The notes under the pieces are model-generated. The model saw nothing but the letters and a program-made list of their open reading frames with translations, had not been told where the DNA came from and made no database searches. Shown here in pieces: positions 1 through 13,433 of a stretch of DNA of 64,000 nucleotides. Numbering within the stretch: the first letter of the stretch is position 1; every line of letters starts with the position of its first letter. The stretch lies in IMG/VR virus record IMGVR_UViG_3300045988_080644; one strand, 5' to 3'. The translations under genes were made by a program, and so were the position numbers. This stretch comes from a virus.

Positions 1-2
1 AT

Positions 3-1310
3 AATGCTCTCCCAGACAACTTAACTGGTGTTTATAATTACGGAAGTGTAATAAGTTTGCCAGGTTTTAACTCTAGATTTGAAATTTATGCTTCTCATTA
101 GTCTAGTAATGGTAATGGATTATATTATAGGAGTGGTTGGGGTAATGATAAGAAAGCATGGCTTAAATTTATTGACTCATCAAATATAGGTTCTCAAACT
201 GTAGCTAATGCATATCACTTACGTATTAATGCTGCTAATACATGGTCTACTTGGTATTGGGCAGGATAGAGTGGTTAGCCTAGTTGGTTGTGGGGTTCTA
301 ATGATGGGACTAATATGTATGTTTGGAATCCAAGTAACTTCAATGTAAATACTGCTCAGTATTTAAGAAGTTTAGGTAATTAGAATTGCCAAACAGGAAG
401 AACGTAGGCATATGGTGATGTATATTCCTATAATACCTATAATGGTAACACTGGTTCTCCTACAACTTATTCTTCTGTAATAGGATTTGGTAGAGGTATT
501 GCTGGAACAGTAGAGATAGCAGGTGGATGGTGTAACACTCATTTATATTGGCGTTCTCTTAAAGACTGTTGTGAAGATTGGTTTCCTTGGAGGACGGTGC
601 TAGACTCAAGTAATTATACTGAGTTTATAAATAACTATTATTGGGCTAATGTTAAAATTTCTGCTTCTTCCTCAACAACTACTTCTCCTACAGTATTGAA
701 TTTGACTGCAACTAATTCTATTAGAATGGGTAATATTTTATTAGAACATACTAATGAAATTAATAATAGTGCTAATGACAGTATACACTTAAACCTCAGA
801 AATTCTGGTAATGTTAGTTTATGTGTAGGAGGAGGTAAGGTAGGGATTGGAACTATGTATCCTTCATAGGAATTATATGTACTGGGATATACTCATACTA
901 AAGGCTTTGGAATAGGCATCTAGTATCTATCTGAGTCAGGATTGTTACCTACCATTAGCCCTGGTGATGGTTATGCATATAGATGTTTAGAAATAGGTAG
1001 ACCAACAAAAGTATCTTGTATTATTGCTGATAAAGTACCCTTGTCAGGAGTAAGAGGGATTTTATTAAAATTTATGCAAGGTTTTGATGGTTAGATAGTA
1101 TTACTGAAGGATTTGGAAAATTATGGAAGTGGAAATGGCTATTTTTGGGTTATGCCTTCTGGATGTAAAATAATAAACGCAGATAACAGTAATATTCTCA
1201 TAAATTAGAATTAGATAAGTAATACATATGATGATGGTAGGTCACGATTTTTTATATATTCCTCTAAGTACAGTGCGTGGATAGAATTTTTTTGTAGTAA
1301 CATTTATTAA
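3..1310 (+). CDS. tail fibre / receptor-binding protein, C-terminal 435 codons (5' end outside window)
   Basis: Frame 0 is open from the window edge to TAA 1308-1310 once about ten in-frame TAGs are read as sense; track fragment 597-869 is part of it. The product carries two copies of a W-x-x-[IL]-[IL]-D-S-S-N motif (WLKFIDSSNIG, WRTVLDSSNYTEF) in Gly/Asn/Tyr/Trp-rich sequence like distal fibre domains. The name is by resemblance only. Confidence 0.6.
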
Positions 1311-1321
1311 CTTTGATTTAT

Positions 1322-1338
1322 CATAAAATAATATACAA
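1322..1338 (+). promoter_or_regulatory. candidate promoter-like motif CATAAAATAATATACAA
   Basis: Lies in the 59-nt gap before ATG 1370. Its first 12 nt are identical to 6022-6033 in the gap before the endolysin gene, and both copies are followed by TACAA. Function not demonstrated. Confidence 0.25.
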
Positions 1339-1369
1339 TTATATATGTTTAATAAAAAATAAATGATTT

Positions 1370-1822
1370 ATGACTTTAAATGATGTTTTAACAAAACAGA
1401 ATCTTATTACAAAGATTCTTTTAGCCAACGATGGCAAAGAACTCCCTAAGGAGTTAAAGGTAAAGATTATGAGAATTAGAATGTCTTATAATAAGATTAA
1501 GAAACAGTTTGATGAAGATACACAAGAATTTAGTAAGCAAATTGTTTCAGATGAATTAAGAGATTTAGCTAATAAGACAGAGCGTACTCCTGAAGAGGAA
1601 ACTAAGTTTAATGAGTTGAATAATAAAGCTAATTCAGAATATCAGGAATATCTTGTACAAAAAGGTAATGAAGATATTAAGGATGCACCTGAAGACACAC
1701 TTACAGAAGATGAGTATGGCGATATTCTTGATGTAAATTCTGATGGTGAGTATGAGATTAATGGTCAGAAAGTAAAAGCTGCTGACCTTATGGAAGCTTT
1801 TTATGAATTATTTGTTAAGTAA
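1370..1822 (+). CDS. hypothetical protein (150 aa, Lys/Glu-rich)
   Basis: Uninterrupted ATG..TAA ORF from the track with no TAG codon. Its TAA overlaps the next ATG (TAATG at 1820-1824). Confidence 0.6.
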   Translation: MTLNDVLTKQNLITKILLANDGKELPKELKVKIMRIRMSYNKIKKQFDEDTQEFSKQIVSDELRDLANKTERTPEEETKFNELNNKANSEYQEYLVQKGNEDIKDAPEDTLTEDEYGDILDVNSDGEYEINGQKVKAADLMEAFYELFVK

Positions 1823-2121
1823 TGGAAATAACAAAACAGAATCAAACATTTAATCTTAAAGATACAACTTCTGATGGTTGGACTGTTTCAGGTTCAGCTA
1901 CTCAGGAGGTTGATGGCAACACTTCTATTAATTTTAGTGTAAGCAAAGATGGAGAGTTGAATAATCAAGTTGGTTATTATAATTATAATGTTCCAACTGA
2001 TGGTATGGTTAATATTAATATCACAGCAATTCCAGAGAATTTGGATGCAGTGATTGATTATACCCAGACTGCAACTAAAAAAATTAAAGATTATCTCGCT
2101 AACCAAACAATTTCTAAGTAA
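1822..2121 (+). CDS. hypothetical protein (99 aa)
   Basis: Uninterrupted ATG..TAA ORF, TAG-free, start coupled to the upstream stop. Confidence 0.55.
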   Translation: MEITKQNQTFNLKDTTSDGWTVSGSATQEVDGNTSINFSVSKDGELNNQVGYYNYNVPTDGMVNINITAIPENLDAVIDYTQTATKKIKDYLANQTISK

Positions 2122-2168
2122 TATGGGAAGAAAGAAACCTAATTCACCAAGAGCAGGACTCTCAACAG

Positions 2169-2399
2169 GTGGCAAGTGCGGTGGAGGAAAGAAGACTAAG
2201 TAAATATCTGCATAAGGTATTACTTATAATTCTTAAGTATACTCCTATAACAATAGCTATTATAGATATATTACATACAATTTTATCTTATTTAGATATT
2301 CCTGCTGAATTACTAAGTTTTTTCGGAGGAATATTTATTATAATATATACTAAGTATGTTATAGCTAATAAAAAGACTATTAAAACAAATAATAGATGA
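2169..2399 (+). CDS. small membrane protein, two hydrophobic segments (holin-like topology; speculative)
   Basis: Track ORF with a GTG start and no in-frame ATG. It has hydrophobic stretches VLLIILKYTPITIAIIDIL and LLSFFGGIFIIIY followed by a basic tail, and ends in TGA. It overlaps a 26-codon basic mini-ORF (2123-2203). Confidence 0.3.
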   Translation: MASAVEERRLSKYLHKVLLIILKYTPITIAIIDILHTILSYLDIPAELLSFFGGIFIIIYTKYVIANKKTIKTNNR

Positions 2400-2487
2400 T
2401 ATTGATACGGGTAATTCTAATATATCATATGAGGAGTAGTGTAAAATTCTTCACCTTATCTAGAATATAACAGATAAAGATTAGAGA

Positions 2488-2658
2488 ATGAGCAAAATAC
2501 AAGCATGTGATTATTTAGGTGTTAGTCGTGCTACTTTTGACAATTATGTTAAGAACGGATGGATTCCAAAAGGATATAAATAGGATGGGTTTAAGGAATT
2601 GTCTTGGATGAAATCTGATCTTGACTTTTATTTAGATACTTATTCTAATAATAAGTAA
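2488..2658 (+). CDS. small helix-turn-helix DNA-binding protein (excisionase/MerR-like HTH)
   Basis: ATG 2488 to TAA 2656-2658 with one in-frame TAG (2581-2583). MSKIQACDYLGVSRATFDNYVKNGWIP is a typical HTH_17-type N-terminus. Confidence 0.55.
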
Positions 2659-2671
2659 CGTTCTGATGTTT

Positions 2672-2739
2672 GAGGAGACGTAGTTAGAGGTTATTATCAA
2701 TTGATAATGCCATTAACTATGTTTCCTCTTTTTATTTTT
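2672..2739 (+). terminator. compound hairpin plus T-run (putative intrinsic terminator)
   Basis: GAGGAGAC (2672-2679) pairs with GTTTCCTC (2721-2728). The stem encloses an inner palindrome TTATCAATTGATAA (2694-2707) and is followed by TTTTTATTTTT. Confidence 0.45.
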
Positions 2740-2830
2740 AGTAATGTCCGAAATTTGAGAATTTAAAATATATAATTGTTTAGTTCTAGAACATAAACAG
2801 ATAATTATTGAAATTTTAAATTTTTAAGCA

Positions 2831-2945
2831 ATGAGTGAAACAAAAACTTTTGTTGTTCCTGATAATTTAACAGGAAACAACGATAATCTTGCTACTATGG
2901 CAATGATGAATGGAGGTTTTGGAGGAGGTATGTGGAATAACCCAT
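2831..2945 (+). CDS. membrane-anchored Gln/Asn-rich protein, exon 1
   Basis: ATG 2831 gives ...NGGFGGGMWNNP. The frame then hits TGA-TAA at 2957-2962 just inside the intron. Confidence 0.8.
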
Positions 2946-3282
2946 TAACTAAAGAATGATAACATAAGTGGGTTTAAAACTCAGTGAACTCAGGGAAACT
3001 CCTTAGAGCTTTAACTACCAAATATAAATAGTGATATTTATATGGATGAATTAACTACTCATGTATGGTAATAAGGTTAAAGATTGGACAATCCTGAGCC
3101 AAGCTCCCTTTTAGGGAGAAGGTGCAACGACTATCGAAAACACATCAAATGATGGAAGTGAGTAGAGTAAGGTTCAAGTGAATCTGAAGTGCTGAGTACT
3201 CTTAAAAGAGTAATGATATAGTCTAAACTTTATAGAAATATAAAGATAATATGTGGAAACGACATATTAGTAAATAATAATG
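2946..3282 (+). ncRNA. group I self-splicing intron, ORF-less, 337 nt
   Basis: P1: exon AACCCAU (2939-2945) pairs with GUGGGUU (2968-2974), with a U2945-G2968 wobble at the 5' splice site. P10: CAUAA (2963-2967) pairs with 3' exon UUAUG (3283-3287). P4: CUCAGG (2989-2994) with CCUGAG (3093-3098). Hairpin CUCCC/GGGAG at 3104-3118. P7: GACUAU (3129-3134) with AUAGUC (3218-3223) inside an S-element-like GAUAUAGUC. The last intron nucleotide is G3282. Removal restores the frame (length = 1 mod 3) and gives MWNNP-F-MYLVWMYIMRW. Confidence 0.85.
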
Positions 3283-4133
3283 TTATGTATCTCGTATGGA
3301 TGTACATTATGCGCTGGATGAATAATGGTTATGGAGACCAGGGTGGAGATCCAGCAGTACAAAGACAGCTTCAAACTCTCTAGGATTAGATGCAAGATAA
3401 TCACAATTCAGATTTAATTATGTAGGCTATAAAGGGAAATAGTTCTGCTTTACAAGATTTAACTACTAGATTAAGTTGTGATGCTAATGCCATCTAGAGT
3501 GCAATTCAGAGTGTACAATCTAGTATAGCTAATGTGGGTAGTTAGGTAGGATTTTCTTCTGAAAGAATAATTAATGCGGTAAATAGTGGAGATAGTGGTA
3601 TTATCCAAGCTCTTAATAACTGTTGCTGCTCTACTTAGAAGGAAATTCTTAAAATGGGTTATGAGAATCAGATTAACAACTAGAATCAGACTTATTAGTT
3701 AACTAGTTAGTTAAATGGTGTAAATAATGTAATTCAGAATGGATTTCGAGACACTAATTATGCCACTTAGCAATAGACTTGCTCTTTGTAGAATACAATT
3801 AAAGATACAACTACTATTAATACTAATGCTATTTTAGCTAAGTTAGATGCTCTTAGTACTTCGGCTTTATAGGATAAGATTGAAGCTTTGCGTGAAAGAA
3901 ATAGTGAGTAGGCTACAGCTATTAATAATTCTCAACAAAGCGCCTTATTTGCTTAGATGCTAAATGCTGCAACAACTCCTATTAATGCCGCTGTAAGTAA
4001 TTTAACTCAAGAAATAGCTAGTATTTAGTGTAAACTTCCAAATACAGTAACTTTACCATATTCTTGTGCTACTGCAGTTCCTACCTCTTTAGCATATAAT
4101 TTATATGGAGCTAATACAGGTGTTTGGGCATAA
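3283..4133 (+). CDS. membrane-anchored Gln/Asn-rich protein, exon 2
   Basis: Frame-0 ORF with no start codon of its own, ending at TAA 4131-4133. It contains many in-frame TAGs in Q-rich context (LQTLQDQMQDN...). Spliced product is 321 aa. Confidence 0.8.
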
Positions 4134-4147
4134 GAAAGGAGGTATCT

Positions 4148-4471
4148 ATGATATTACTTAATCCTTATGTTTACGCAAATAGAAATGGCATTCTTAGATT
4201 AGAAGCTAATTCAGTAAATGTTGGAACCACTAATGTAACATTTACCTTTACTCCACATAATTTCTTAAATAAAGCTTATTCGGGATTAATTTTATTTAAA
4301 TTGCCTGGATTTACAGCTCCTTCTACAGCAGTTCCTATTGTATTTAGCACAAATGGAAAAAATTAGGATTTAACTACATTAGGTGGAGAGGCTGTTACCT
4401 CTGCAACTTTAAATAAGGCTGGTATATATTTAGCTTATTACGAAAATAATACATTACAATTATTATATTAA
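4148..4471 (+). CDS. hypothetical structural protein (107 aa)
   Basis: ATG 4148 is preceded by AGAAAGGAGGTA (4133-4144). Track fragment 4124-4366 continues past TAG 4364-4366 to TAA 4469-4471. Confidence 0.65.
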
Positions 4472-4474
4472 TAC

Positions 4475-4957
4475 ATGGCATTTTCTAATTTACGTAACGG
4501 TAATCAACTATTTATATTACATAAAGATAATGTACCATCATTGGAATTAGGTAAGGTAGCTAACATAACACCGCCTATTCCTAAGTATGGTAATACTGGG
4601 ATGTATAATCCGGAGATGATTTTAGATATTACTGCTGACGTAAATGGAACTATGACTAATTTCTAGAAATTGCCAGCAAATAGTGAGATAGCAGATTTTG
4701 GTAATAATATAGTTATATCTTGTAATAAAGAAGCTATGAGTAGTGAAATTAATTCCATGAAATAGCGAAGTACAGATATAGTTAATAGTATTTAGTTACA
4801 TAAAGACATTATTAAAGGATGTGATGAAATACTTATGCAATTAAATCCTGAAATCTAGGAAAGACAAAGATAGGAAGCAGAGAATAAAGCTTTAAGAGAG
4901 GAAGTTAATTCTCTAAAAGAAATGTTTAAAGAGTTTATGAAATCATGGCAACAATAA
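4475..4957 (+). CDS. hypothetical protein with C-terminal coiled coil (160 aa)
   Basis: ATG 4475; track fragment 4475-4666 extends through several TAGs to TAA 4955-4957. Confidence 0.65.
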
Positions 4958-5139
4958 TTGAAGTACAAGATACAAAGTTAGACAATCTTTCTGAGTATGT
5001 AGAGAAAATGATCAATTATGGCGGAAAAGTAATGCGCTGTATTGAAGAAATGTAGTCTAAAGATTACAATGAGAAGTATGGAAGACGTAGATACCCTAGA
5101 GAAGAGTATCGTGACCCTGACTATAATAGATATTTCTAA
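4945..5139 (+). CDS. hypothetical protein (64 aa)
   Basis: ATG 4945 overlaps the upstream gene by 13 nt. It has one in-frame TAG and ends at TAA 5137-5139. Confidence 0.5.
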
Positions 5140-5141
5140 TT

Positions 5142-5543
5142 ATGAGACAAGCTTTAGATACTTATGATGATATGCCTAAATATATGAAGTAGTATTTACG
5201 TAATTATGGATGGCATTTCAATAAAGCTCTATGTAATTATGCTGTATCTCTGATGGAAAAAGGGGGTCAAAAACTTGAACCAGTATCTAAAGAATATGTA
5301 GATAAGACTTTAGAACAATATAATGTTCAATTAGAAAAGAATGTAGGTTGTGACTATGTATTCGTAGCTAATATGTGTAAAGCGGATTACTATGGTAGTA
5401 GTATAACCGATGAAAAGCACTTTGCTCTCTACATTAAAGACACAATAGATGATGAGGATGCAGGTGATGGTACCACTATGAGAAGATGGTATGCAACTAT
5501 GGTAGCTAATGGAACAATGGTAGATTGGGAAGAGTTTATATGA
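5142..5543 (+). CDS. hypothetical protein (133 aa)
   Basis: ATG 5142 is in frame with track fragment 5253-5543, with one TAG in between. The TGA overlaps the next ATG (ATGA 5540-5543). Confidence 0.65.
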
Positions 5544-5932
5544 TACATTACAAAGCTTGTTTAGAAAAATATAATTGGTCAGTTGACATTTACGTAATAC
5601 AGTATAAGCACGATTTAGAATATCTAGATTGTATAGCTAGTAAATATAATGTGCCTAATAAAATTTATGATAAATTAACAAATAGACTAACTAATTATAT
5701 TAATTCTGGATTTATTTATAATTGCGACAAAACTAATCACAGTATTATATTTGTAGGAGAATCAGATTCTATTTATGAAGCTGCAAATACTCTAGCACAT
5801 GAAAAGAATCATCTAGAGATATATCTGTGTAAGTTATTAAATATAAATCCAGAATCAGAAGATGCTGCTATTCTAAGTGGGGATATTACAGAATAGTTAA
5901 TAAATCCATATATAGTATAGCTAATTAAATAA
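5540..5932 (+). CDS. small HExxH-motif protein (possible Zn-metallopeptidase)
   Basis: ATG 5540; the AHEKNH motif lies at 5798-5812. The standard-code end is TAG 5894-5896; under TAG=Gln it runs 12 more codons to TAA 5930-5932. Confidence 0.55.
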
Positions 5933-5947
5933 TTAAAAAGTAGTAAT

Positions 5948-5990
5948 AGAGGAATTTCTTAATTTTAAGGAGTTCCTCTATTTTTGTTTT
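5948..5990 (+). terminator. intrinsic terminator
   Basis: AGAGGAA (5948-5954) pairs with TTCCTCT (5973-5979), followed by ATTTTTGTTTT. It closes the operon before the endolysin gene. Confidence 0.6.
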
Positions 5991-6021
5991 GCAGCAATAT
6001 TTCTATTAAATATATATAGAC

Positions 6022-6042
6022 CATAAAATAATAAATATACAA
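6022..6042 (+). promoter_or_regulatory. candidate promoter-like motif CATAAAATAATAAATATACAA
   Basis: Sits between terminator 5948-5990 and ATG 6048. It shares CATAAAATAATA...TACAA with 1322-1338. Confidence 0.25.
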
Positions 6043-6047
6043 ATACT

Positions 6048-6455
6048 ATGGGAAAATATTTTAGTATTGCAGAATTAACTAAGAGTGAAACTGCAAATAA
6101 AAGAAAAATTGACAACAAACCTACTAAAGAAGTAGAAAATTGTCTTAATTAGTTAATAGATAATATTTTAGATCCATTGAGAAAAGCTTATGGATAGCCA
6201 ATTATTGTGTCTAGTGGATATAGATGTCCTGAGTTAAATAAAGCAGTCGGAGGTGCTAGAACTAGTTAGCACACACTCGGCTAGGCTGCAGATATTCATA
6301 CTAAATCTAATTCTAAGGAAAGTAATAAACAATTATTTGAACTTATTAAATAGTTAAAGCTTCCTTTTGATTAGCTAATTAATGAGTATAATTATTCTTG
6401 GGTACATGTCAGCTATTCTCCTAGAAATAGAAGACAAATCCTTAATATTAAATAA
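6048..6455 (+). CDS. endolysin, peptidase M15 family (D-Ala-D-Ala carboxypeptidase-like / L-alanyl-D-glutamate peptidase type)
   Basis: 135 codons with six in-frame TAGs. The signature SGYRCPELNKAVGGARTS-Q-HTLG-Q-AADI ... WVHVS gives the H-x6-D ... H zinc triad. Two of the TAGs fall inside this motif, and the SQH Gln is TAG 6267-6269. Confidence 0.85.
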
Positions 6456-8356
6456 TGGCACAACTTTTTGGTAAAAACTATTAGGAAGCAGGTTCCTCTT
6501 CCTCCCCACTATTACTAAGAAGTAATGGAGAAATTAAATTATAGTGGGGAAATAAATTTATAGATTTAATTAAAAACGGGAAAATAAATTCAGAAGCTAA
6601 AGATTATATATTTACTGTAGATACTTCTGATGAAATTAAAGCAAATGGGATATATTTAGTTACAGAAGATAGTTCTATTTGGATAAATGTAGAAGGTACT
6701 AAAACTAAAGTAAATAATACTGATACTACTTATGTGTCATTTTTAACAGAATAGGAAACAACTCCTGAATAGAAATAGCAAGCCTTAACTAATTTAGGCT
6801 TAATATATGAAAATATAGATGCCTTAAATAAAGCAAATCTAGTAACTGGTTTAGCTTATGTAGTTGAATCCAATAAATTATATTTAATTCAAAACAAAGT
6901 AGTTTCAGAATATTAGGTAGCATCAGCTTTACCTACTTCAGGTAAATTTGAAGATTTAACTATTAGTAATTTAACTATTAAAAATAATACTATAAATTCT
7001 AACTAGTTGATATTAACAATTAACAATATACCATATTTATAGATAAATGACAATATCCTTTGTAGTGTTCCCTTTTTGGTGGATAAATTACAATCAATAA
7101 ATTATAATTATAACAAATCAGGATTTGCCCTATATCAAGATAATGGTAAGTCTATTCTTGATATAGATAGTTTAAATTGGAGAAATATAGAATCTGAGTT
7201 ACCTAAAAATTAGAAAACTTATATTACTTATACTATTTTAGGTGATTTTAATATAGTCACTGGGGTTACAGATGTATCATCGAAGGATGAATCCTTATAT
7301 AAATTAGAATTAAAATATCCAAATAATATATCTTTAAGTTTATCTAATTATATACTAGCAGAGTTAGAAACCACCTACAATATATTTCTTTTAACTACAA
7401 AAGTATAGATATAGGATGATATAAGTTATAATCAAATAGTATTAGATAAAAATATTCCAGAAACACATTAGCTGTATGTAAAATTTTCAGATTCTTCTAC
7501 TAAACTTTATTCTAGAAATGACGTTAAATTATTTGACGTTAATTTATCAGTAGATGAAGCTTATTTATATAATAATGGTATTGATACTAAATATATAGTT
7601 GATATAGACAGTGCACAAAAGCATAATATAATTCCCTTAGAGTTTGAAATTCGTAAAGTAGATAAGTATTATATAATTATCAAACTTCAAAATACTTTAT
7701 TAGCATCTGATTTATTAAATTCTAACTAGTTAAAAATATATCAGGCAAGAGTTCCTCAATTTATTTAGGGTGAAGGATTCTTAGCATTACGTAAGTGGGA
7801 TTCTGTAAATAATAAATATGTCTATCATACTATTATAGGCACTTATAAAGAATCTGAATTTGGAATATCTGATGATACTAATGATAAATTTGGATTTTAT
7901 AGTGATGATGTTAAAGTTACTGGAATTTCATTAAGCGGAGCTAAATTTTCAGGACAATTACCTAGTTTTACTGAAACTAAACCTGATACAATAGCAAATA
8001 ATTAGTTTCCAACCATGGAAATAGTTAATGAAAAAATAAAGAAAGCTGTTGATGATGCAGGTGATACTAACATATCCTTAATTAGTAAAAACTCTCTACC
8101 TAAGGGTTCTATTATAATGTTTAATAGTGCTGAAAATATACCTGATAAATGGTAGATTTGTGATGGGACTAATGGAACTCCTAATTTGATTGACAAATTT
8201 ATTAAGGCTGGAACAACTCTTAAAGAAGAATCTATAGAATTAACTAAATATACAAACTCTACAGAAACTCCTGGAGAAACAACTCCAGAACAATCAGAAG
8301 ATAATAAATATAAGCTTGATGCTTATTCCTTAATATTTATAATGAAAATGAAATAA
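6455..8356 (+). CDS. tail fibre protein with C-terminal tail-collar-type domain (633 aa)
   Basis: ATG 6455 overlaps the upstream TAA (TAATG). Read in frame 2 to TAA 8354-8356, only TAG interrupts. The C-terminal LPKGSIIMFNSAENIPDKW-Q-ICDGTNGTPNLIDKFIKAG (about 8100-8215) is the classic P-x-G-W-x-x-C-D-G-x-N-G-T-P-[DN]-L fibre/collar motif. Confidence 0.8.
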
Positions 8357-9390
8357 TGAATATGGAAAGTAATTTTGATGACACAATGTTTGAAGTAGAT
8401 GAATTCGATGAGACCCCTACTCCAAGCAATTTAGAAACAGATCCGAAACCTGAAAAAACAGACAATTAGGAGACTGATTCTACTCCTCCAAGTGAAGGAG
8501 ATTAGGAAGATGATTTAACTACTGAAGTATTAAGACTTAGAGGTATTAGTAATCCGGACAAGATTAAATTTGAAGATGAGAGTGGTGCTGTTACAGAACG
8601 CTCTTGGGATTCTCTAACTAAAGAGGAGTAGATAAATATCTTAGCAGATTAGAGAGAGCATTAGGAGACTAATAATGAGTTAGCAGAAGATGAAATTGAC
8701 CTTATTAATGCTATTAGAAATAGTGGAATGAGTGTTCAAGATTATATGCAAACTATTACTCCATAGATTAATCAGCCATAGGATACAAATTAGTTTGATG
8801 CTATGTCGGATGAAGATTTATATGCTTTCGATATTTTAAATAAAGTTGGTAATGATAACATTACAGATGAAGAACTAGATGCAGCATTAGAAGCTGCTAA
8901 GGCTAATGAAACTTTATTTAAGAAAACAGTTGATGGATTAAGACAACAATATAATAGATTACAAGAAGAACAAAAACAGAACATTGCAAATCAACAATAG
9001 GCTGCTGCTCAGCAGAGATACTAGGCATTTGCTAATGTGGTTAACAATTAGATTGACAACTTTAATAGTTTTGCAGGACAACCTATTCAATTATCCAATC
9101 AAGATAAGGACAATTTGTCTGAATTTATGTTAGCTTTAGATGAAGATGGTTCTAGTGCTTTAGGCAAAGCATTACAAGATCCTAAACTTTTAACTAAAGC
9201 TGCATTTTGGTTACTTAATGAATAGGAATTAATTGCAGAGCTATAGAAGCAACAACAAGATGCATATACTCGTGGTTATAATGCAGGTAAAGGAGATATT
9301 CTTAACAAATCTAAATTCGTATTTAAACCCACAAAGCAAGCTGCGAGTAAAAAGGATGAATCTATTTGGGATTCAGACGATTGGGATTAA
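8356..9390 (+). CDS. scaffolding protein (inferred)
   Basis: TAATG-coupled start. The 344-aa product is very acidic and Gln-rich with a predicted coiled-coil character, and lies immediately upstream of the capsid gene. Track fragment 8803-9000 is in frame, and there are about 13 in-frame TAGs. The function is inferred from position and composition. Confidence 0.55.
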
Positions 9391-9412
9391 TTCTTAAATT
9401 TAATTTTTATTT

Positions 9413-10834
9413 ATGTTAGTAGCAAATTTTGTAACAAACCATGCAACCATGGGAGATACACGAACTTACGAAGATTTGAGTAAGTTTTTAGGTGAAAGAC
9501 CTCACCGACTTGGAGTAGTATCCAGACTCTATCCAGAATTGACAGCTACATTCTTGACAGAGGCACTGCGAAATGTTTATTATGGTGATTCTAAGCCAAG
9601 TAAGTATCAAAGTATCGATTCCACTTACTTTGAGTGGGAGGTGGAAACTAATTATATTAAACGTGTTCCATTTGCAGCTGAACCAGTTGGTGATGGAGCA
9701 AACGGCTCTGAGATTGAAATGATTTTCCCAGAGAATTATTATCGTTTGCATGAAATCTTCAAGATTGAAAGTACTGGTCAATAGTGTTTTGTTGTTTCCG
9801 ATAGTGTTAGAAAGGCAGATAATATGTGGTCAGTAATGGTTCGCTTGCTCGATGATGATTATTCTTCTGTACTTGATACTGATGGTACACATATTGGTGA
9901 TTACACTTATTTTATTGGTAATGCTAAACCAGAATTGCATGAGACTGGTTGGGTTAAGTATCAAAGTAATGTAGAAAAGATGCGTAATTATATGAGTACT
10001 ATTCGTGTATAGGATACATATAGTGCTAAATATGCATTGATGGAAGATACATTTATCAAGATTGGTAAAGGAGAGAACCAGGGATGCCTTACTGAAAAGA
10101 TTTACAAGCTGGATCCTATGAAGAAGAATCTTATCGAGAACTTCTTGTATGCAAGAGAGAATATGATTTTGCTTGCTAAGGGTACTGTAGGTGTTGATGG
10201 TAAGACTACATTAGCTGATAAAGCTACAGGAAGACCTATCTTCATTGGTGATGGTGCTATCCCTCAAATTGAAAGATTTGCAAGTAAGTATTCTGCAAAT
10301 AGAATTACAATAGGTACATTCCATACAGTAATTTCTGATATGGTATCAAAAGCAGATAAGCCAACAGGTAATCATTTCTGCTTTATGTGTAATGAAAAAG
10401 CTTGGGCTATTGTACAAAGAGTACTTGGTGAGTATCTTTCTACTAGAAAGACTGATGGAGCTTATCTCTGGTCTAAGCAAGGTGAAGGAAAGTATATTAA
10501 AGTAGGTGCTACATTCGATGCATATGAGTGGGGAGGCAATACTATCAGTTTTAAGGTTGATAGAACATTGTCTAGAGAGTACCAAGACCCATATTTCTTG
10601 TGTATTGATTTGACAACTGGTAAGACATCTACACAACCTCCTATTCAAATGTTCTCATTGAAGGGTAAAGACTACATTTTCAACGAAGTTCTCGGTGTAG
10701 GTGGTCGCTCAGGAGGTGAAAGTGGTGTTGTAAGTTCACCTGTAGCCGGTGGTCTTATGACAATTTGGGGATATGCAGGCATCGCTGTATTTAACCCTTA
10801 TAAATCATTTATCCTTAAAGCTAAGGAATATTGA
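9413..10834 (+). CDS. major capsid protein (inferred, HK97-fold class)
   Basis: Track fragments 9413-9784, 9824-10012 and 10037-10834 share frame 2 and are separated only by TAG 9782-9784 and TAG 10010-10012; the gene ends at TGA 10832-10834. It is 473 aa, locally higher in GC, has very few TAGs, follows the scaffold gene and is followed by a hairpin. Confidence 0.7.
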
Positions 10835-10930: not shown

Positions 10931-11815
10931 ATGGCAAAGAAAGTTAATGATGTAAAGGACGGTGACTTAAAGAGTAATGTTGTTGTTCTTAGAAGTGTTT
11001 ATGGTAAAGTTGGATAGAAATATTTTATTCAGCCACAAAGAAATCCTAAAACTGGACGTTTTCCAGAGTGTGTAAAGTAGGTAAATTCATATGGAGATAT
11101 TATCCTTACAGAAGATGAAAGAAATAGAGAAGCGCTAGGTTTAGCACATTTTATTCCAGTAACTGAAGTATTTACTATTACTGATGGCAAGTCCTTTGAT
11201 TTGGATGATATTTATCAAGCTGCTGAATGGGAAGCAATTAAAAACTGCGATCTTATTGCTGTAGATAGATATGCTAAGAATGATAAGGGTGATTATTTAA
11301 TTGATGGTACTGTAGACAAACATTCTACAAGACCTCGTTATGGTGCTGCTGAGTTATATGTTGATAGACCTGGTCTTGATGCATCTCGTAGAGTTACTAG
11401 AAAGAAACTTATTCATCAGGCTATTAACTTCATTCTCGATGATGAAAGAGGTTATGACGGCAGATTGCTTGTGGCTAGAGTATTGGGTAGAAATATGAAG
11501 AATCAACCTAATGCAGATGTTGAGGATTATTTAATTTCTATTGCAGAAAAGACTCCAGAGAAGATTATTAATTGTTACACCGGAGGAGATATGCAATTCC
11601 GTATGTTATTTATTGAAGCCCGTGAACATGGAGTAATTAGAAAGAAACAAGGTCTTTATGTTTTCGGAGATGATGGAAAATGCATCTTGGGAGCAACAGA
11701 TGATGCTGCTATTGAATGGATGCAAAGTCCTAAAAATAGTAAAGTCATGGCTATGATTCGTAAAGATACTTATCCTGAAATGTTCGTAGATGAAGAACTC
11801 TCAGATAAGAAATAA
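10931..11815 (+). CDS. conserved-looking structural protein (294 aa), function unknown
   Basis: ATG 10931 is in frame with track fragment 11201-11815. There are two in-frame TAGs, and the gene ends in a double stop, TAA-TAA. Confidence 0.7.
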
Positions 11816-11837
11816 TAAACAAAATTAATCGTTTTAA

Positions 11838-12029
11838 ATGACAGCTAGGTAGAATTAAAATTAATTTATTATAAAATATATTGTATATAGAACTACTTGT
11901 TTAATAAACAATAAAATTTATGTTGGAGTACATCATACAGATGATCCTAATATATTTGATGGCTATTTAGGTAGAGGTTTATGGAAAAATCATACTCGGT
12001 ATATAAAAAATCCAACTCCAACAATATAA
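11838..12029 (+). pseudogene. decayed GIY-YIG homing endonuclease remnant
   Basis: Frame 0 reads ATG 11838 MTARQN, then TAA, N, TAA, then FIIKYIVYRTTCLINNKIYVGVHHTDDPNIFDGYLGRGLWKNH... and stops at TAA 12027-12029. YIVY-x10-KIYVG matches the GIY-YIG signature (compare I-TevI GIYQIKNTLNNKVYVGS). Only about 55 codons remain, far short of a functional enzyme. Confidence 0.7.
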
Positions 12030-12290
12030 ATTAATACTGCCCACTTATCTAGTAATAGGTAAGCAGTAGGGAGCAAAAACGGTGGAGGCTGTGACGCTAA
12101 TACCGTGGTAAATTATTTAATAATATAAATAATCACCGTAACGCATAGGAATTGAACCTAAATAATAGAATATAATATTCCCAAGAGTGTTCCCCTTCCT
12201 AAGAGATTAGGAAGAATATGTATGCTGGACTAAAACAAATAAGAAGTTTTAGAGCTATAGGATAAAAAGCCTATAGGGTAACAACACGAG
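11847..12290 (+). mobile_element. putative group I-like intron (or free-standing dead HEG plus structured leader); boundaries provisional
   Basis: This is the only long non-coding gap in the window apart from the intron at 2946. It holds the HEG remnant plus a GC-richer ~260-nt tail with perfect hairpins (12195-12214, 12255-12276) and a 12079-12085/12133-12139 pairing. The downstream ORF lacks an ATG. A candidate P1 pairs ACAGCU (11841-11846) with GGCUGU (12087-12092), giving a U-G wobble. G12290 precedes the exon, and the spliced frame is preserved (MTA-IFEATL...). I could not identify a canonical P7. Confidence 0.4.
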
Positions 12291-13433
12291 ATATTTGAAG
12301 CAACTTTAATAGAATTGAGTAAGATTCAAGCTCCAGCTCTTAAACTGTACGAATTTAATTACCTTTTTAATAAGGCGATTAATTAGTATATTAATAAAGT
12401 ATATAATGTATATGATACTAATCAGCAGACTACTGATGATTTAAGAGTCTTAAAATCTACGGCTTATTTAAAACCTCATAAGTATGGTGTGACTAGTTCT
12501 AACAAGACTAAGCCATACAATAACTATACTGGAGGAGGTACTAATCCCACATATGATGGACAGAGTCCTTCTGCAGATATATAGTATGCAACTGCCAGTT
12601 CTTATTTAAGTGCAGCCCATTCTTAGATTCAATCTTTGAATGGTGCTACTTATGAGGTATTTATGCCCATTGATTATTTACATATGCTTAACTGTGTATG
12701 TATCTATTATGTTGCAAAACAAAAAGATTGTTGGGATGCAGGTTCATATATTCAAATTCCTGCAACTCGACTTACTGCGGATTCTTGGAGTTAGATTGTA
12801 ACTGATATTTACAATAGACCATCTCCAATGCGTCCGTATTATTATATACATAATCAGGCTTCTAGTATCACTATTCCAACTGACCCAGTTACTGCCGGAA
12901 CAGTAGGAGAATCTAATCCATCTGGTTATACTGGCACTGATATGCCTATAGGTGGTTATAAAGTAACTAGTGATAATGGAGCCGTTGCTACTAATACATC
13001 AGATGATTCCGGAGCTGGTTCTAACTTCTAGAGAACCTTTAAACTTAAAAATGGAGAAGTTTCAAAAGATATTTCTTTAGTAGAGAAACCAACTGCGGTA
13101 AGAGTTGCAAATCCAAGCAATGTTCGTTGCGAAATCCGCTATGGTAAAGACGATTCTCTCTTCTAGTTAGTAGAAGTGCAAATTGATTATGTAAAGAGTC
13201 CTCAATTTATTCGTTTGACACAAGAATAGATTGATTTAACAGAAGATACTTCTCAAATTATGGAGTTTCCAGATTATGTAAACCAAGAGATTATAAATGA
13301 GTTGGTACACTTAGTTATGGAGCATTCAAATGATCCAAGACTGGCAAATAATATTTAGATGACTAATACTATTGCCCGACCAACTGGACAGTAGTAGGCT
13401 GCACCTCAATAGTAGGCAGCTCAACAGTAGTAA
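12291..13433 (+). CDS. structural protein (about 380 aa) with Gln/Ala-rich C-terminal tail; N-terminus uncertain
   Basis: Frame 0 opens at 12282 after a TAA, and the first in-frame ATG is more than 100 codons in. The N-terminus is either exon 2 of a split gene or starts at TTG 12315. Track fragment 12828-13031 is in frame. The gene ends ...CAG TAG TAG GCT GCA CCT CAA TAG TAG GCA GCT CAA CAG TAG TAA (13389-13433). Confidence 0.65.

Follow-up and report, generated by a model that had tools for sequence, protein, structure and literature searches.

The window examined here is a 64,000-nucleotide stretch of DNA (IMG/VR virus record IMGVR_UViG_3300045988_080644). It belongs to a large, TAG-recoded crAss-like phage of the gut: its stop-to-stop open reading frames of at least 100 codons sum to 17 kb under the standard code versus 72 kb with TAG read as sense. 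A tRNA scan of the window revealed no suppressor tRNA. The major capsid protein gene, assigned by Pfam Crass_capsid, occupies positions 9404-10834, and two genes downstream of it, in the virion module, lies an interrupted gene (Table 1). Its open frame, 12282-13433, holds 13 in-frame TAGs and reaches its first Met at about codon 127 (..YEVFMPIDY..). An ATG at 11838 shares its frame with an endonuclease fragment and is cut off from it by TAA 11856 and TAA 11862, as an earlier note on this DNA had described; indeed, all of the sequence features listed in that note are present where it placed them. Taken together, the two predicted exons encode a 385-aa protein. This protein has no Pfam match above threshold and no PHROG match, and it has no sequence match in the PDB when searched as a single sequence or as a 12-sequence profile. 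A single-sequence AlphaFold2 model of P0001, which is 99% identical to it, has a pLDDT of 33. The IMG/VR contigs that carry the host gene are mostly about 95-190 kb long, with a few larger.

Table 1. Features of the interrupted gene and its insert, in window coordinates. Helices and splice sites are predicted; a slash within RNA or codon letters marks the splice site.
Feature	Position	Strand	Remarks
Gap before the downstream gene	from TAA TAA 11813-11818 after the upstream gene to the open frame from 12282 (TAG as sense)		
Exon 1, coding part	11838..11850	+	ATG ACA GCT AGG T = M T A R and first base of the TAG (Gln) codon; U11850 is the 5' splice-site U
Probable group I intron	11851..12288	+	438 nt; absent from close relatives; same insert in L007-L010 and L207
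P1 5' strand	11848..11858	+	GGU/AGAAUUAA; splice site after U11850
GIY-YIG homing-endonuclease remnant	11871..12029	+	in the P1 loop; 52 codons and stop
P1 3' strand (internal guide sequence)	12031..12041	+	UUAAUACUGCC; begins 2 nt past the endonuclease stop codon
P2 hairpin	12044..12063	+	CUUAUCUA-GUAA-UAGGUAAG; 8 bp, GNRA-type loop
P3 5' strand and P4-P5-P6 domain	12069..12139	+	covariation on alignment A2
P3 5' strand	12069-75	+	followed by J3/4 AAA; P3 98.6% paired, double changes in 5/7 pairs
P4	12079-83/12102-06	+	100% paired
P5	12087-89/12096-98	+	86.7% paired
P6	12107-09/12135-37	+	98.9% paired
P6a	12112-19/12126-33	+	
Catalytic core (P7, P7.1, P3 3' strand, P8, J8/7)	12141..12226	+	
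P7	12141 and 12143-47 with 12221-26	+	bulged C12142; 100% paired
P7.1	12148-52/12177-81	+	98.2% paired; 4/5 pairs covary
Inner hairpin of P7.1	12158-60/12166-68	+	optional
P3 3' strand	12188-94	+	
P8	12195-12202/12207-14	+	GAGA loop; 87.2% paired
P9, P9.1 and 3' tail	12230..12288	+	
P9	12230-36/12246-52	+	99.5% paired; double changes in 6/7 pairs
P9.1	12255-61/12270-76	+	99.5% paired; double changes in 6/7 pairs; loop AUAAAAAG with invariant AUAAAAA stretch
Intron 3' tail	to G12288	+	GGUAACAACACG; terminal G12288
Exon 2	12289..13433	+	AG completing TAG, then ATA TTT GAA.. to stop; 13 in-frame TAG codons
Intron-less allele reading at exon 1			cgttttaaATGACAGCTAGGTAGATATTTGAAGCA; L011-L017, L061, L070, L206
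Predicted spliced-junction sequence			AGGUAGAUAUUU
Predicted spliced-junction 40-mer			TTTTAAATGACAGCTAGGTAGATATTTGAAGCAACTTTAA

Comparison with genomes lacking the insert, which the earlier note had recommended, reveals an exact absence. Relatives with flanks up to 99% identical miss precisely the 438 nt from 11851 to 12288 and read ATGACAGCTAGGTAG joined directly to ATATTTGAA. L011-L017, L061 and L070 (80-88% amino acid identity) read ATGACAGCTAGGTAGATATTTGAAGCA, which equals window positions 11838-11850 joined to 12289 onward, and the intron-less L206, with flanks of 99.1-99.7% nucleotide identity, is the same exact join. Across the insertion point the intron-less alleles read ATGACAGCTAGGTAGATATTT. 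Excision of the insert at the DNA level thus restores an uninterrupted host frame. Owing to a 3-nt repeat, AGA, the DNA alone does not place the boundary uniquely, and U11850/G12288 is the sole choice that leaves a U preceding the 5' splice site and a G as the final intron base. This pair of boundaries, the first of the alternatives in the earlier note, is also the one that reproduces the intron-less alleles.

The predicted spliced product begins MTARQIFEATLIELSK, with the junction U11850-A12289 rebuilding a TAG (Gln) codon. The public uninterrupted 385-aa proteins P0001 and P0004, which are 99% identical to it, begin in the same way, and several homologues have CAA or CAG as their codon 5, in place of the T/AG of the window. 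The 13 coding bases upstream of the insert, ATGACAGCTAGGT, are kept 100% identical and match the conserved N-terminus of the homologues: all 76 of the 76 uninterrupted homologues begin M/V/L-T-A/S-R/K-Q-(I/V).

Positions 12031-12288 contain a full group I architecture, from P1 to P9.1, in which P3 and P7 cross to form a pseudoknot. Among 33 members of the intron family, 93.8% of 1856 cells are paired, compared to 32-43% when the partners are slid, and double changes occur in 47 of the 62 pairs. The covariation score is 0.562 versus 0.055-0.120 for the slid controls, and none of 500 shuffles reaches 0.562; every helix from P3 to P9.1 is supported. Of 29 family members folded with RNAfold, most, including the window, form a stem capped by a 4-nt loop at the position of P2. 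The earlier note had found no convincing P7, but one is present, and its pair 12145/12223 undergoes a compensatory change from A-U to G-C in 13 of the 33 sequences. C12142 lies unpaired between A12141-U12226 and G12143-C12225; the latter pair is invariant in all 33 sequences and is the predicted guanosine-binding pair of P7. The perfect hairpins that had been noticed at 12195-12214 and 12255-12276 turn out to be conserved helices, P8 and P9.1, respectively. A 7-bp pairing of 12079-85 with 12133-39, also proposed in the note, does exist in the window, but relatives do not conserve it; the pairing is 72.9% versus 72.1% in shuffles, covariation is absent, and its bases belong to P4 and P6. Michel and Westhof reportedly defined the group I subgroups in 1990, with IA marked by extra P7.1/P7.2 elements. 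The extra P7.1 element predicted here between P7 and the 3' strand of P3 makes the intron one of subgroup IA type, a subgroup with one or more extra helices (P7.1/P7.2) in that interval (PMC3984707).

The 5' splice site is marked by the wobble U11850-G12039, within GGU/AG paired to CUGCC, as is expected of a group I intron. Read from the sequence, the pairs are G11848-C12041, G11849-C12040, U11850-G12039, A11851-U12038 and G11852-C12037, followed by a mismatch of A with A and five A-U pairs (11854-58 with 12031-35), so that only five contiguous pairs surround the splice site. P10 would comprise 2 bp only. Counterparts of this P1 occur in cr6_1 (GGU/AAUA with UAUUGCC), in Lbo-JY46 (CGAU/AA with UUGUCG), in ORF-less IMG/VR relatives (GGU/AA.. 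with ..UUGCC) and in phiCD211, and homologues of the 3' strand (..UUGCCG, UUGGCG or UUGUCG) lie directly upstream of P2 in relatives. The terminal G12288 is likewise placed as in relatives, where the terminal G follows a conserved UAACA by 9-10 nt.

The intron family is widespread. A core motif search returned at least 119 IMG/VR loci, and a consensus-like family member used as query matched 94 GenBank phage records, most of whose rows show only the host gene, a 'hypothetical protein' or no feature. Window positions 12067-12287 are about 70% identical to DNA that parts the halves of split genes, with an endonuclease ORF where one is present. An nhmmer profile built without the window and L009 matches 12068-12287 with an E-value of 3e-49 and matches nowhere else. 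Rfam searches do not report the element: positions 11600-12600 at E<=10 gave no intron match from RF00028 or the rest of Rfam, only chance-level snoRNA and miRNA matches; the whole window at the gathering threshold gave nothing; and four related loci at E<=1 gave nothing. Search filters matter here, since the whole-window run missed even the window's other intron, 2922-3245, which RF00028 scores at 72.9 bits on a shorter stretch. In a control with phiCD211, RF00028 missed the family copy while scoring an adjacent, different intron at 41.7 bits. The missing Rfam match is therefore uninformative, and the absence of a covariance-model hit, which the earlier note would have taken as refutation, does not serve as such; an RF00028 match is a practical rather than a defining criterion for group I introns.

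The P1 loop carries the remains of a GIY-YIG gene. The frame 11865-12029 translates to FIIKYIVYRTTCLINNKIYVGVHHTDDPNIFDGYLGRGLWKNHTRYIKNPTPTI*, with the motifs KYIVY...IYVG. As had been recognized from the letters alone, this is a GIY-YIG N-terminus: it matches PHROG 314 'homing endonuclease' (E 2.8e-8) and, by tblastn, 499 phage records, many of them annotated as Seg-like GIY-YIG homing endonucleases. The search with PF01541 that the note had proposed gave no match for the remnant at E<=0.1, nor for the intact protein of sister contig L009 at E<=0.01. In L009, the P1 loop of the same intron holds an intact GIY-YIG/NUMOD1 ORF of 300 codons, starting ATGAAATATATTGTATAT. The intact protein and TIGR01453 'group I intron endonuclease' align over their full lengths (E 1e-8), with a score of 35.5 bits that falls short of the model's curated cut-off, 56. 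It also matches NUMOD1 (E 2.3e-7); its matches in the PDB are at chance level only.

Compared to L009, the window has lost 744 nt (248 codons) in frame, with the deletion junction at an AATCC microhomology (12009-12013), and its remnant is without the middle of the protein, approximately codons 47-294, which would make up the remainder of the catalytic domain as well as the DNA-binding part. Its start codon has also been lost by mutation to ATA at 11871-73; at position 11873, L007, L009 and L207 have a G in place of the A. Judged from its reading frame, the window's endonuclease gene is dead, having no start codon and no full catalytic or DNA-binding domain. At this same site the intron measures 1181 nt in L009, 438 or 437 nt in the window, L008 and L010, and 290 or 289 nt in L007 and L207, in which a larger, independent deletion occurred at an ATATA repeat.

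We conclude that 11851-12288 is very probably a group I intron that interrupts a conserved virion-module gene within its fifth codon, a recoded TAG (Gln). The intron-less alleles, the allele with an intact endonuclease and the covariation of the core bear out the central proposal of the earlier note, namely that a second group I intron, bearing a dead GIY-YIG gene, precedes an ATG-less gene, and the intron-less alleles likewise favor its suggestion that splicing would supply the start codon of that gene.

Three other explanations were weighed. The element could be a real intron whose splicing is lost or poor, a decaying relic in a host gene that is a pseudogene or expressed at a low level. The clearly dead endonuclease gene, which puts the element past its mobile phase, and the short P1 both agree with such a relic. 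We nevertheless consider it unlikely, since all core helices are intact in the window copy and the six intron alleles differ in ways that spare or conserve pairing: every ribozyme substitution in the five other alleles either lies in a loop or joining region or turns a G-C pair into G-U (12097, 12270). Moreover, the two independent deletions in the endonuclease gene both end before the 3' strand of P1 and so preserve it, while exon 2 is an uninterrupted frame of 381 codons that is 99% identical to intron-less alleles, which is unexpected for a pseudogene, in a host gene conserved in more than 5000 database proteins.

Alternatively, no splicing might take place, with a free-standing, decayed endonuclease gene and unrelated structured DNA preceding a gene that starts internally, for example at TTG 12315. 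That codon is in frame, the Rfam match is absent, and the public gene call P0011 (MFEATL..) on an intron-bearing contig begins in exon 2. The intron allele L207 has ATG instead of ATA as the first whole codon in exon 2, so a downstream start might be usable in some genomes. Still, we regard an unspliced gene as very unlikely. A start at 12315 would drop 13 conserved residues, and none of the 76 uninterrupted homologues aligned, as the note had advised, begins at the matching residue; the bases kept upstream of the insert instead equal their N-terminus. In addition, the insert boundaries fit the U...G rule, and the 3' 260 nt form a covariation-supported group I core that is also present in split genes of unrelated phages. 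The junction preferred in the earlier note, U11846 joined to A12291 (MTA-IFEATL..) with 11841-46 and 12087-92 as P1, preserves the frame and, on paper, provides a U-G wobble, but it is extremely improbable, given that its product is two residues shorter than every homologue (MTARQ(I/V)) and differs from the intron-less DNA, that its intron end, G12290, lies two bases beyond the terminal G position of relatives, and that covariation assigns 12087-89 to P5, which rules out this P1 in favor of 11848-58/12031-41 while leaving the endonuclease remnant in the P1 loop, as the note had it.

The sequences compared show the insertion with its boundaries, the fold and the successive stages of decay, and from them we infer the chemistry and efficiency of splicing for the group I intron. 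In the folded pre-mRNA, P1 would form by pairing of the guide sequence with GGU (11848-50) of exon 1 and with the start of the intron. An external guanosine, bound at G12143-C12225 of P7, would attack after U11850; the terminal G12288 would then replace this guanosine, and the freed exon 1 would attack after G12288. Ligation of the exons would yield ...AGG U-AG AUA UUU... and a normal N-terminus. Because exon 1 holds only the ATG and 13 coding bases, the normal protein would come only from spliced RNA. The intron presumably arrived by homing, driven by the GIY-YIG/NUMOD1 endonuclease gene in its P1 loop. That gene would then have died here through the change of ATG to ATA and the in-frame deletion between AATCC repeats, with the ribozyme probably preserved by the host gene's dependence on it.

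The td, nrdB and sunY introns of phage T4 belong to subgroup IA2 and are associated with the GIY-YIG endonucleases I-TevI and I-TevII. Like them (review PMC3984707), the window intron has a core of the IA type, in which additional helices separate P7 from P3', lies in a protein-coding phage gene and carries a GIY-YIG ORF in a peripheral loop, and introns of the T4 type with no ORF or a degenerate one are known. However, the searches run detected no sequence match to T4; the ORF lies in the P1 loop rather than in P6 or P9, and the insertion interrupts a recoded stop codon 13 nt beyond the start codon. The window intron is classified here to the level of IA (IA2 or IA3). The remnant also resembles the T4 Seg-type endonucleases (N-terminal 36-52 residues 47-68% identical by tblastn; YIVY...IYVG...DGYLGRG), although those are free-standing, whereas the window gene is intron-borne and is without the protein middle and the start codon.

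Closer to the window intron are the copies in phiCD211, Staphylococcus phage 6ec, cr6_1 and Lbo-JY46, which are about 68-73% identical to it at the nucleotide level over P3-P9.1 and share its helices, its conserved J8/7 and L9.1 motifs and its GGU/A.. with ..UGCC style of P1. Their settings differ: a tape measure gene and no ORF in phiCD211; a tape measure gene and an HNH endonuclease in the P5 loop in 6ec; an ATPase gene and an ORF annotated 'intron-encoded endonuclease' in cr6_1; and a DNA polymerase gene and a LAGLIDADG endonuclease in the P1 loop in Lbo-JY46. In these four GenBank records the element itself is not annotated as an intron.

Similar hosts have been described. According to the available text of Yutin et al. 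2021 (PMC7886860), Zeta-group crAss-like phages of 145-192 kb contain up to 14 group I introns and recode TAG or TGA. Like the window intron, the introns of the Delta and Zeta groups described there reside in large crAss-like phages whose late genes are TAG-recoded, and they are elements of the same kind, occurring in core and structural genes, no more than 14 per genome. The survey, as described there, detected introns through endonuclease domains and could easily overlook copies that retain just a 52-codon wreck, as here, or have no ORF; the same portion of the paper does not name the host gene or insertion site found in the window. Dense group I introns in large crAss-like phages are thus already published and no new question is opened: the window intron adds a clean case to a type of element known to be common in these phages. 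The family is probably under-counted in phage genomes, since it is invisible to RF00028 and often lacks a recognizable endonuclease. Where the intron is ignored, gene callers truncate a conserved protein, as with P0011, or miss its start.

In public data, this one insertion site exists in four states (empty, with an intact endonuclease gene, with that gene partly deleted and with it almost fully deleted), and it provides a compact natural illustration of the invasion-decay cycle of a homing element in a TAG-recoding phage. The intact endonuclease gene of L009 contains three in-frame TAGs, at codons 218, 251 and 284, and the chance of meeting no TAA or TGA in the 82 codons past the first of them is about 0.002. 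Given these TAGs, the full-length enzyme would be made only once TAG is read as Gln, late in infection. Likewise, the virion-module protein would need both splicing and suppression, since the intron falls within a recoded TAG, 13 nt past the ATG. A tentative reading, about which we have more doubt than confidence, is that intron and endonuclease are integrated into the phage's code switch, with expression and cost gated by stop-codon recoding. If true, this would be a stop-codon-gated homing element from a widespread IA-type lineage that the standard Rfam model does not see.

The gene interrupted here encodes a 385-aa virion-module protein and lies two genes downstream of the major capsid protein gene. 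Using the downstream protein as a query in tblastn and an IMG/VR scan, we collected 2 GenBank and 80 IMG/VR loci. Nine close relatives without the insert (L011-L017, L061 and L070; 80-88% amino acid identity) read ...cgttttaaATGACAGCTAGGTAGATATTTGAAGCAACT, and so does an intron-less Logan contig (L206) with flanks 99.1-99.7% identical. This intron-less sequence corresponds to window 11816-11850 joined to 12289 onward, and therefore the insert found by comparison with such empty sites, as the earlier note had advised, is 438 nt long. Because of a 3-nt AGA repeat, the ends of the insert can be set in more than one way, and among the possible boundaries only 11851-12288 has a preceding U and a terminal G. 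The joined message reads ATG ACA GCT AGG T/AG ATA TTT..., which encodes MTARQIFEATLIELSK. An N-terminus of the form M/V/L-T-A/S-R/K-Q-(I/V) is present in all 76 uninterrupted homologues, and two database proteins of the host gene that are 99% identical (P0001 and P0004) begin with exactly MTARQIFEATLIELSK. Several relatives have CAA or CAG as codon 5, and the rebuilt TAG therefore corresponds to glutamine. The earlier note listed features that are all present in the window sequence; its preferred junction, U11846/A12291, is rejected because the product is two residues too short, and its first alternative, U11850/G12288, is correct, in agreement with both the intron-less alleles and the homologue N-termini.

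In an ENA sewage contig with a 289-nt form of the intron (L207, 722-735), exon 2 has ATG rather than ATA as its first whole codon (..ACACGAG ATG TTT..), and a public gene call (P0011, MFEATL...) begins at this ATG. The change could be a neutral replacement of isoleucine by methionine or a step towards splicing-free expression.

The reading of TAG as a sense codon holds for the window as a whole, whose sequence makes sense no other way. Stop-to-stop open reading frames of at least 100 codons total 17 kb with the standard code and 72 kb with TAG taken as sense. TAG stands for glutamine across the late and structural genes of the + strand, which carries every long gene in the window, and giant frames of 3090 and 3463 codons contain more than 100 TAGs each. 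ARAGORN found no tRNA, suppressor tRNAs included, in the 64-kb window. The G+C content is 31%, Pfam Crass_capsid and a PHROG major head protein both match the gene at 9404-10834, and IMG/VR contigs bearing near-identical genes are mostly ~95-190 kb long, with a few larger. For Zeta-group crAss-like phages, Yutin et al. (2021, PMC7886860) report genomes of 145-192 kb that recode TAG or TGA in late genes and contain as many as 14 group I introns each, and the window phage is consistent with the large phages described there.

A group I fold was derived from an alignment of five sequences and then tested on 33 diverse members (alignment A2). Standard pairs occupy 93.8% of 1856 cells, compared to 32-43% in slid controls (3' partners moved by 1-3 columns), and both sides have changed in 47 of 62 pairs. 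The fold scores 0.562 for covariation, versus 0.055-0.120 in the slid controls, and none of 500 shuffles reached its score. P3 and P7 cross to form the group I pseudoknot. The earlier note could find no convincing P7; this helix is now located, with a compensatory A-U to G-C change at 12145/12223 in 13 of the 33 members and an invariant G12143-C12225 pair adjoining the unpaired C12142. A 7-bp pairing listed in the earlier note, 12079-85 with 12133-39, lacks conservation. In 1990 Michel and Westhof reportedly took an extra helix, located between P7 and the P3 3' strand, as the mark of subgroup IA. PMC3984707 gives the same mark, and P7.1 occupies this place in the window.

Features of the interrupted gene and of the intron (window coordinates)
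Feature	Coordinates	Detail
Upstream gene end	11813-11818	TAA TAA
ATG	11838	followed by ACA GCT AGG TAG AAT TAA
Downstream frame	12282-13433	13 in-frame TAGs
P1	11848-58 / 12031-41	exon and intron bases in 5' strand
P2	12044-63	GUAA loop
P3	12069-75 / 12188-94	
P4	12079-83 / 12102-06	
P5	12087-89 / 12096-98	
P6	12107-09 / 12135-37	
P6a	12112-19 / 12126-33	
P7	12141, 12143-47 / 12221-26	
P7.1	12148-52 / 12177-81	
P8	12195-12202 / 12207-14	
P9	12230-36 / 12246-52	
P9.1	12255-61 / 12270-76	

In P1, GGU/AGAAUUAA (the slash marks the splice site) pairs with UUAAUACUGCC through two G-C pairs, the U11850-G12039 wobble, A-U, G-C, one A/A mismatch and five A-U pairs. Its loop is exactly the endonuclease remnant, the stop codon of which ends 1 nt before the P1 3' strand. 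This design is common to relatives: GGU/AAUA with UAUUGCC in crAss phage cr6_1, GCU/AA with UUGGC in Clostridioides phage phiCD211, and CGAU/AA with UUGUCG in Leptolyngbya phage Lbo-JY46; IMG/VR copies without an ORF have short P1 hairpins. Most of the 29 members folded have counterparts of P2 with a 4-nt loop. Because intron bases 1-3 (AGA) repeat the first three bases of exon 2, exon 2 would be able to replace them on the guide sequence once the first step is complete, giving a 2-bp P10.

The last 260 nt of the intron form a conserved ribozyme core. By blastn, 12067-12287 is 68-73% identical to DNA of unrelated phages, where the matching DNA, plus an endonuclease ORF if present, stands between the halves of split genes. 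These are an ATPase gene in cr6_1 (with an ORF annotated 'intron-encoded endonuclease'), tape measure genes in Staphylococcus phage 6ec (HNH ORF) and phiCD211 (without an ORF), and a DNA polymerase gene in Lbo-JY46 (LAGLIDADG ORF). A core-motif scan places the family in at least 119 IMG/VR loci, and a consensus-like member used as query matches 94 GenBank phage records, with terminase, capsid and tape-measure genes among the hosts. A profile from which the window and its sister L009 were left out matches 12068-12287 (E 3e-49) and nothing else in the window. Both the family of the endonuclease and the loop that holds it vary on this core: 6ec has an HNH gene in the P5 loop, Lbo-JY46 has a LAGLIDADG gene in the P1 loop, and cr6_1 has a further endonuclease, also in the P1 loop. 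This points to repeated exchange of endonuclease ORFs within one intron lineage. The GenBank matches lie mostly under 'none', 'hypothetical protein', 'terminator' or the host gene (terminase, capsid, tape measure), and most copies of the family in public phage genomes appear to lack annotation.

RF00028 gave no match at E<=10 on 11600-12600. The phiCD211 tape-measure gene (L002, 2462-3038) holds two different group I introns almost back to back, an unannotated family copy at ~2462-2755 and an annotated Intron_gpI at 2774-3038. The absent match for 11851-12288 is uninformative because the model misses this family copy yet scores its neighbor at 41.7 bits. The other group I intron of the window, 2922-3245 (+), the first one in the earlier note, scores 72.9 bits (1-9000 searched; gathering score 50) and was placed between a short ORF from ~2811 (MSETKTFVVPDNL...) and an ORF at 3171-4133. 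A whole-window Rfam run at the gathering threshold returned no match at all, even at 2922-3245, and therefore a true match above the threshold was lost in the fast filters.

The frame at 11865-12029 reads FIIKYIVYRTTCLINNKIYVGVHHTDDPNIFDGYLGRGLWKNHTRYIKNPTPTI*. It matches PHROG 314 'homing endonuclease' (E 2.8e-8) and Seg-like GIY-YIG genes in 499 phage records, which upholds the proposed GIY-YIG remnant; a Pfam PF01541 search of the fragment, also advised earlier, gave no match. At this insertion site, L009 (IMGVR_UViG_3300045988_115917) carries a 1181-nt form of the intron, with an intact 300-codon ORF (1344-2246) that starts ATGAAATATATTGTATAT. Its product matches TIGR01453 'group I intron endonuclease' end to end (E 1e-8, under the curated cut-off) and has a NUMOD1 domain. 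Three in-frame TAGs occur at codons 218, 251 and 284, and the probability, given the ORF's composition, that the 82 codons past the first TAG contain neither TAA nor TGA is ~0.002, so this endonuclease is evidently written in the phage's recoded dialect. At three intron-less loci, L021 (230-352), L083 (259-362) and L085 (18-120), a stretch located ~2.2 kb upstream of the host gene, roughly where the capsid gene lies, shows 75-81% identity to the remnant's N-terminal part, and a related endonuclease gene is probably located at this other site.

In the window, L008 and L010, the endonuclease start is changed from ATG to ATA (A11873), and 744 nt are deleted in frame between two AATCC repeats (junction 12009-13, IKNP/TPTI). 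A larger deletion, independent of the first, lies between ATATA repeats in L007 and L207, whose introns are 290 and 289 nt long. Both deletions spare the P1 3' strand, and where the intron alleles differ within the ribozyme, the substitution is in a loop or joining region or turns G-C into G-U (12097, 12270). This pattern of decay is as expected if the selfish gene were dispensable but the ribozyme needed by the host gene; that the insert is not spliced, or is a dead relic, is improbable even when the two are taken together.

The empty sites, the covarying core and the intact L009 allele bear out the second intron with a dead GIY-YIG gene put forward earlier. We regard it as very probable that 11851-12288 is a group IA-type intron with that gene in its P1 loop, and, with somewhat less confidence, predict from sequence that it is spliced efficiently. 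Elements of this kind are well known, and their abundance in large crAss-like phages is already published. The modest interest of this one lies in a four-state series at a single insertion site, in an intron that splits a recoded stop codon 13 nt past the ATG, and in the blindness of RF00028 to a widespread intron family.
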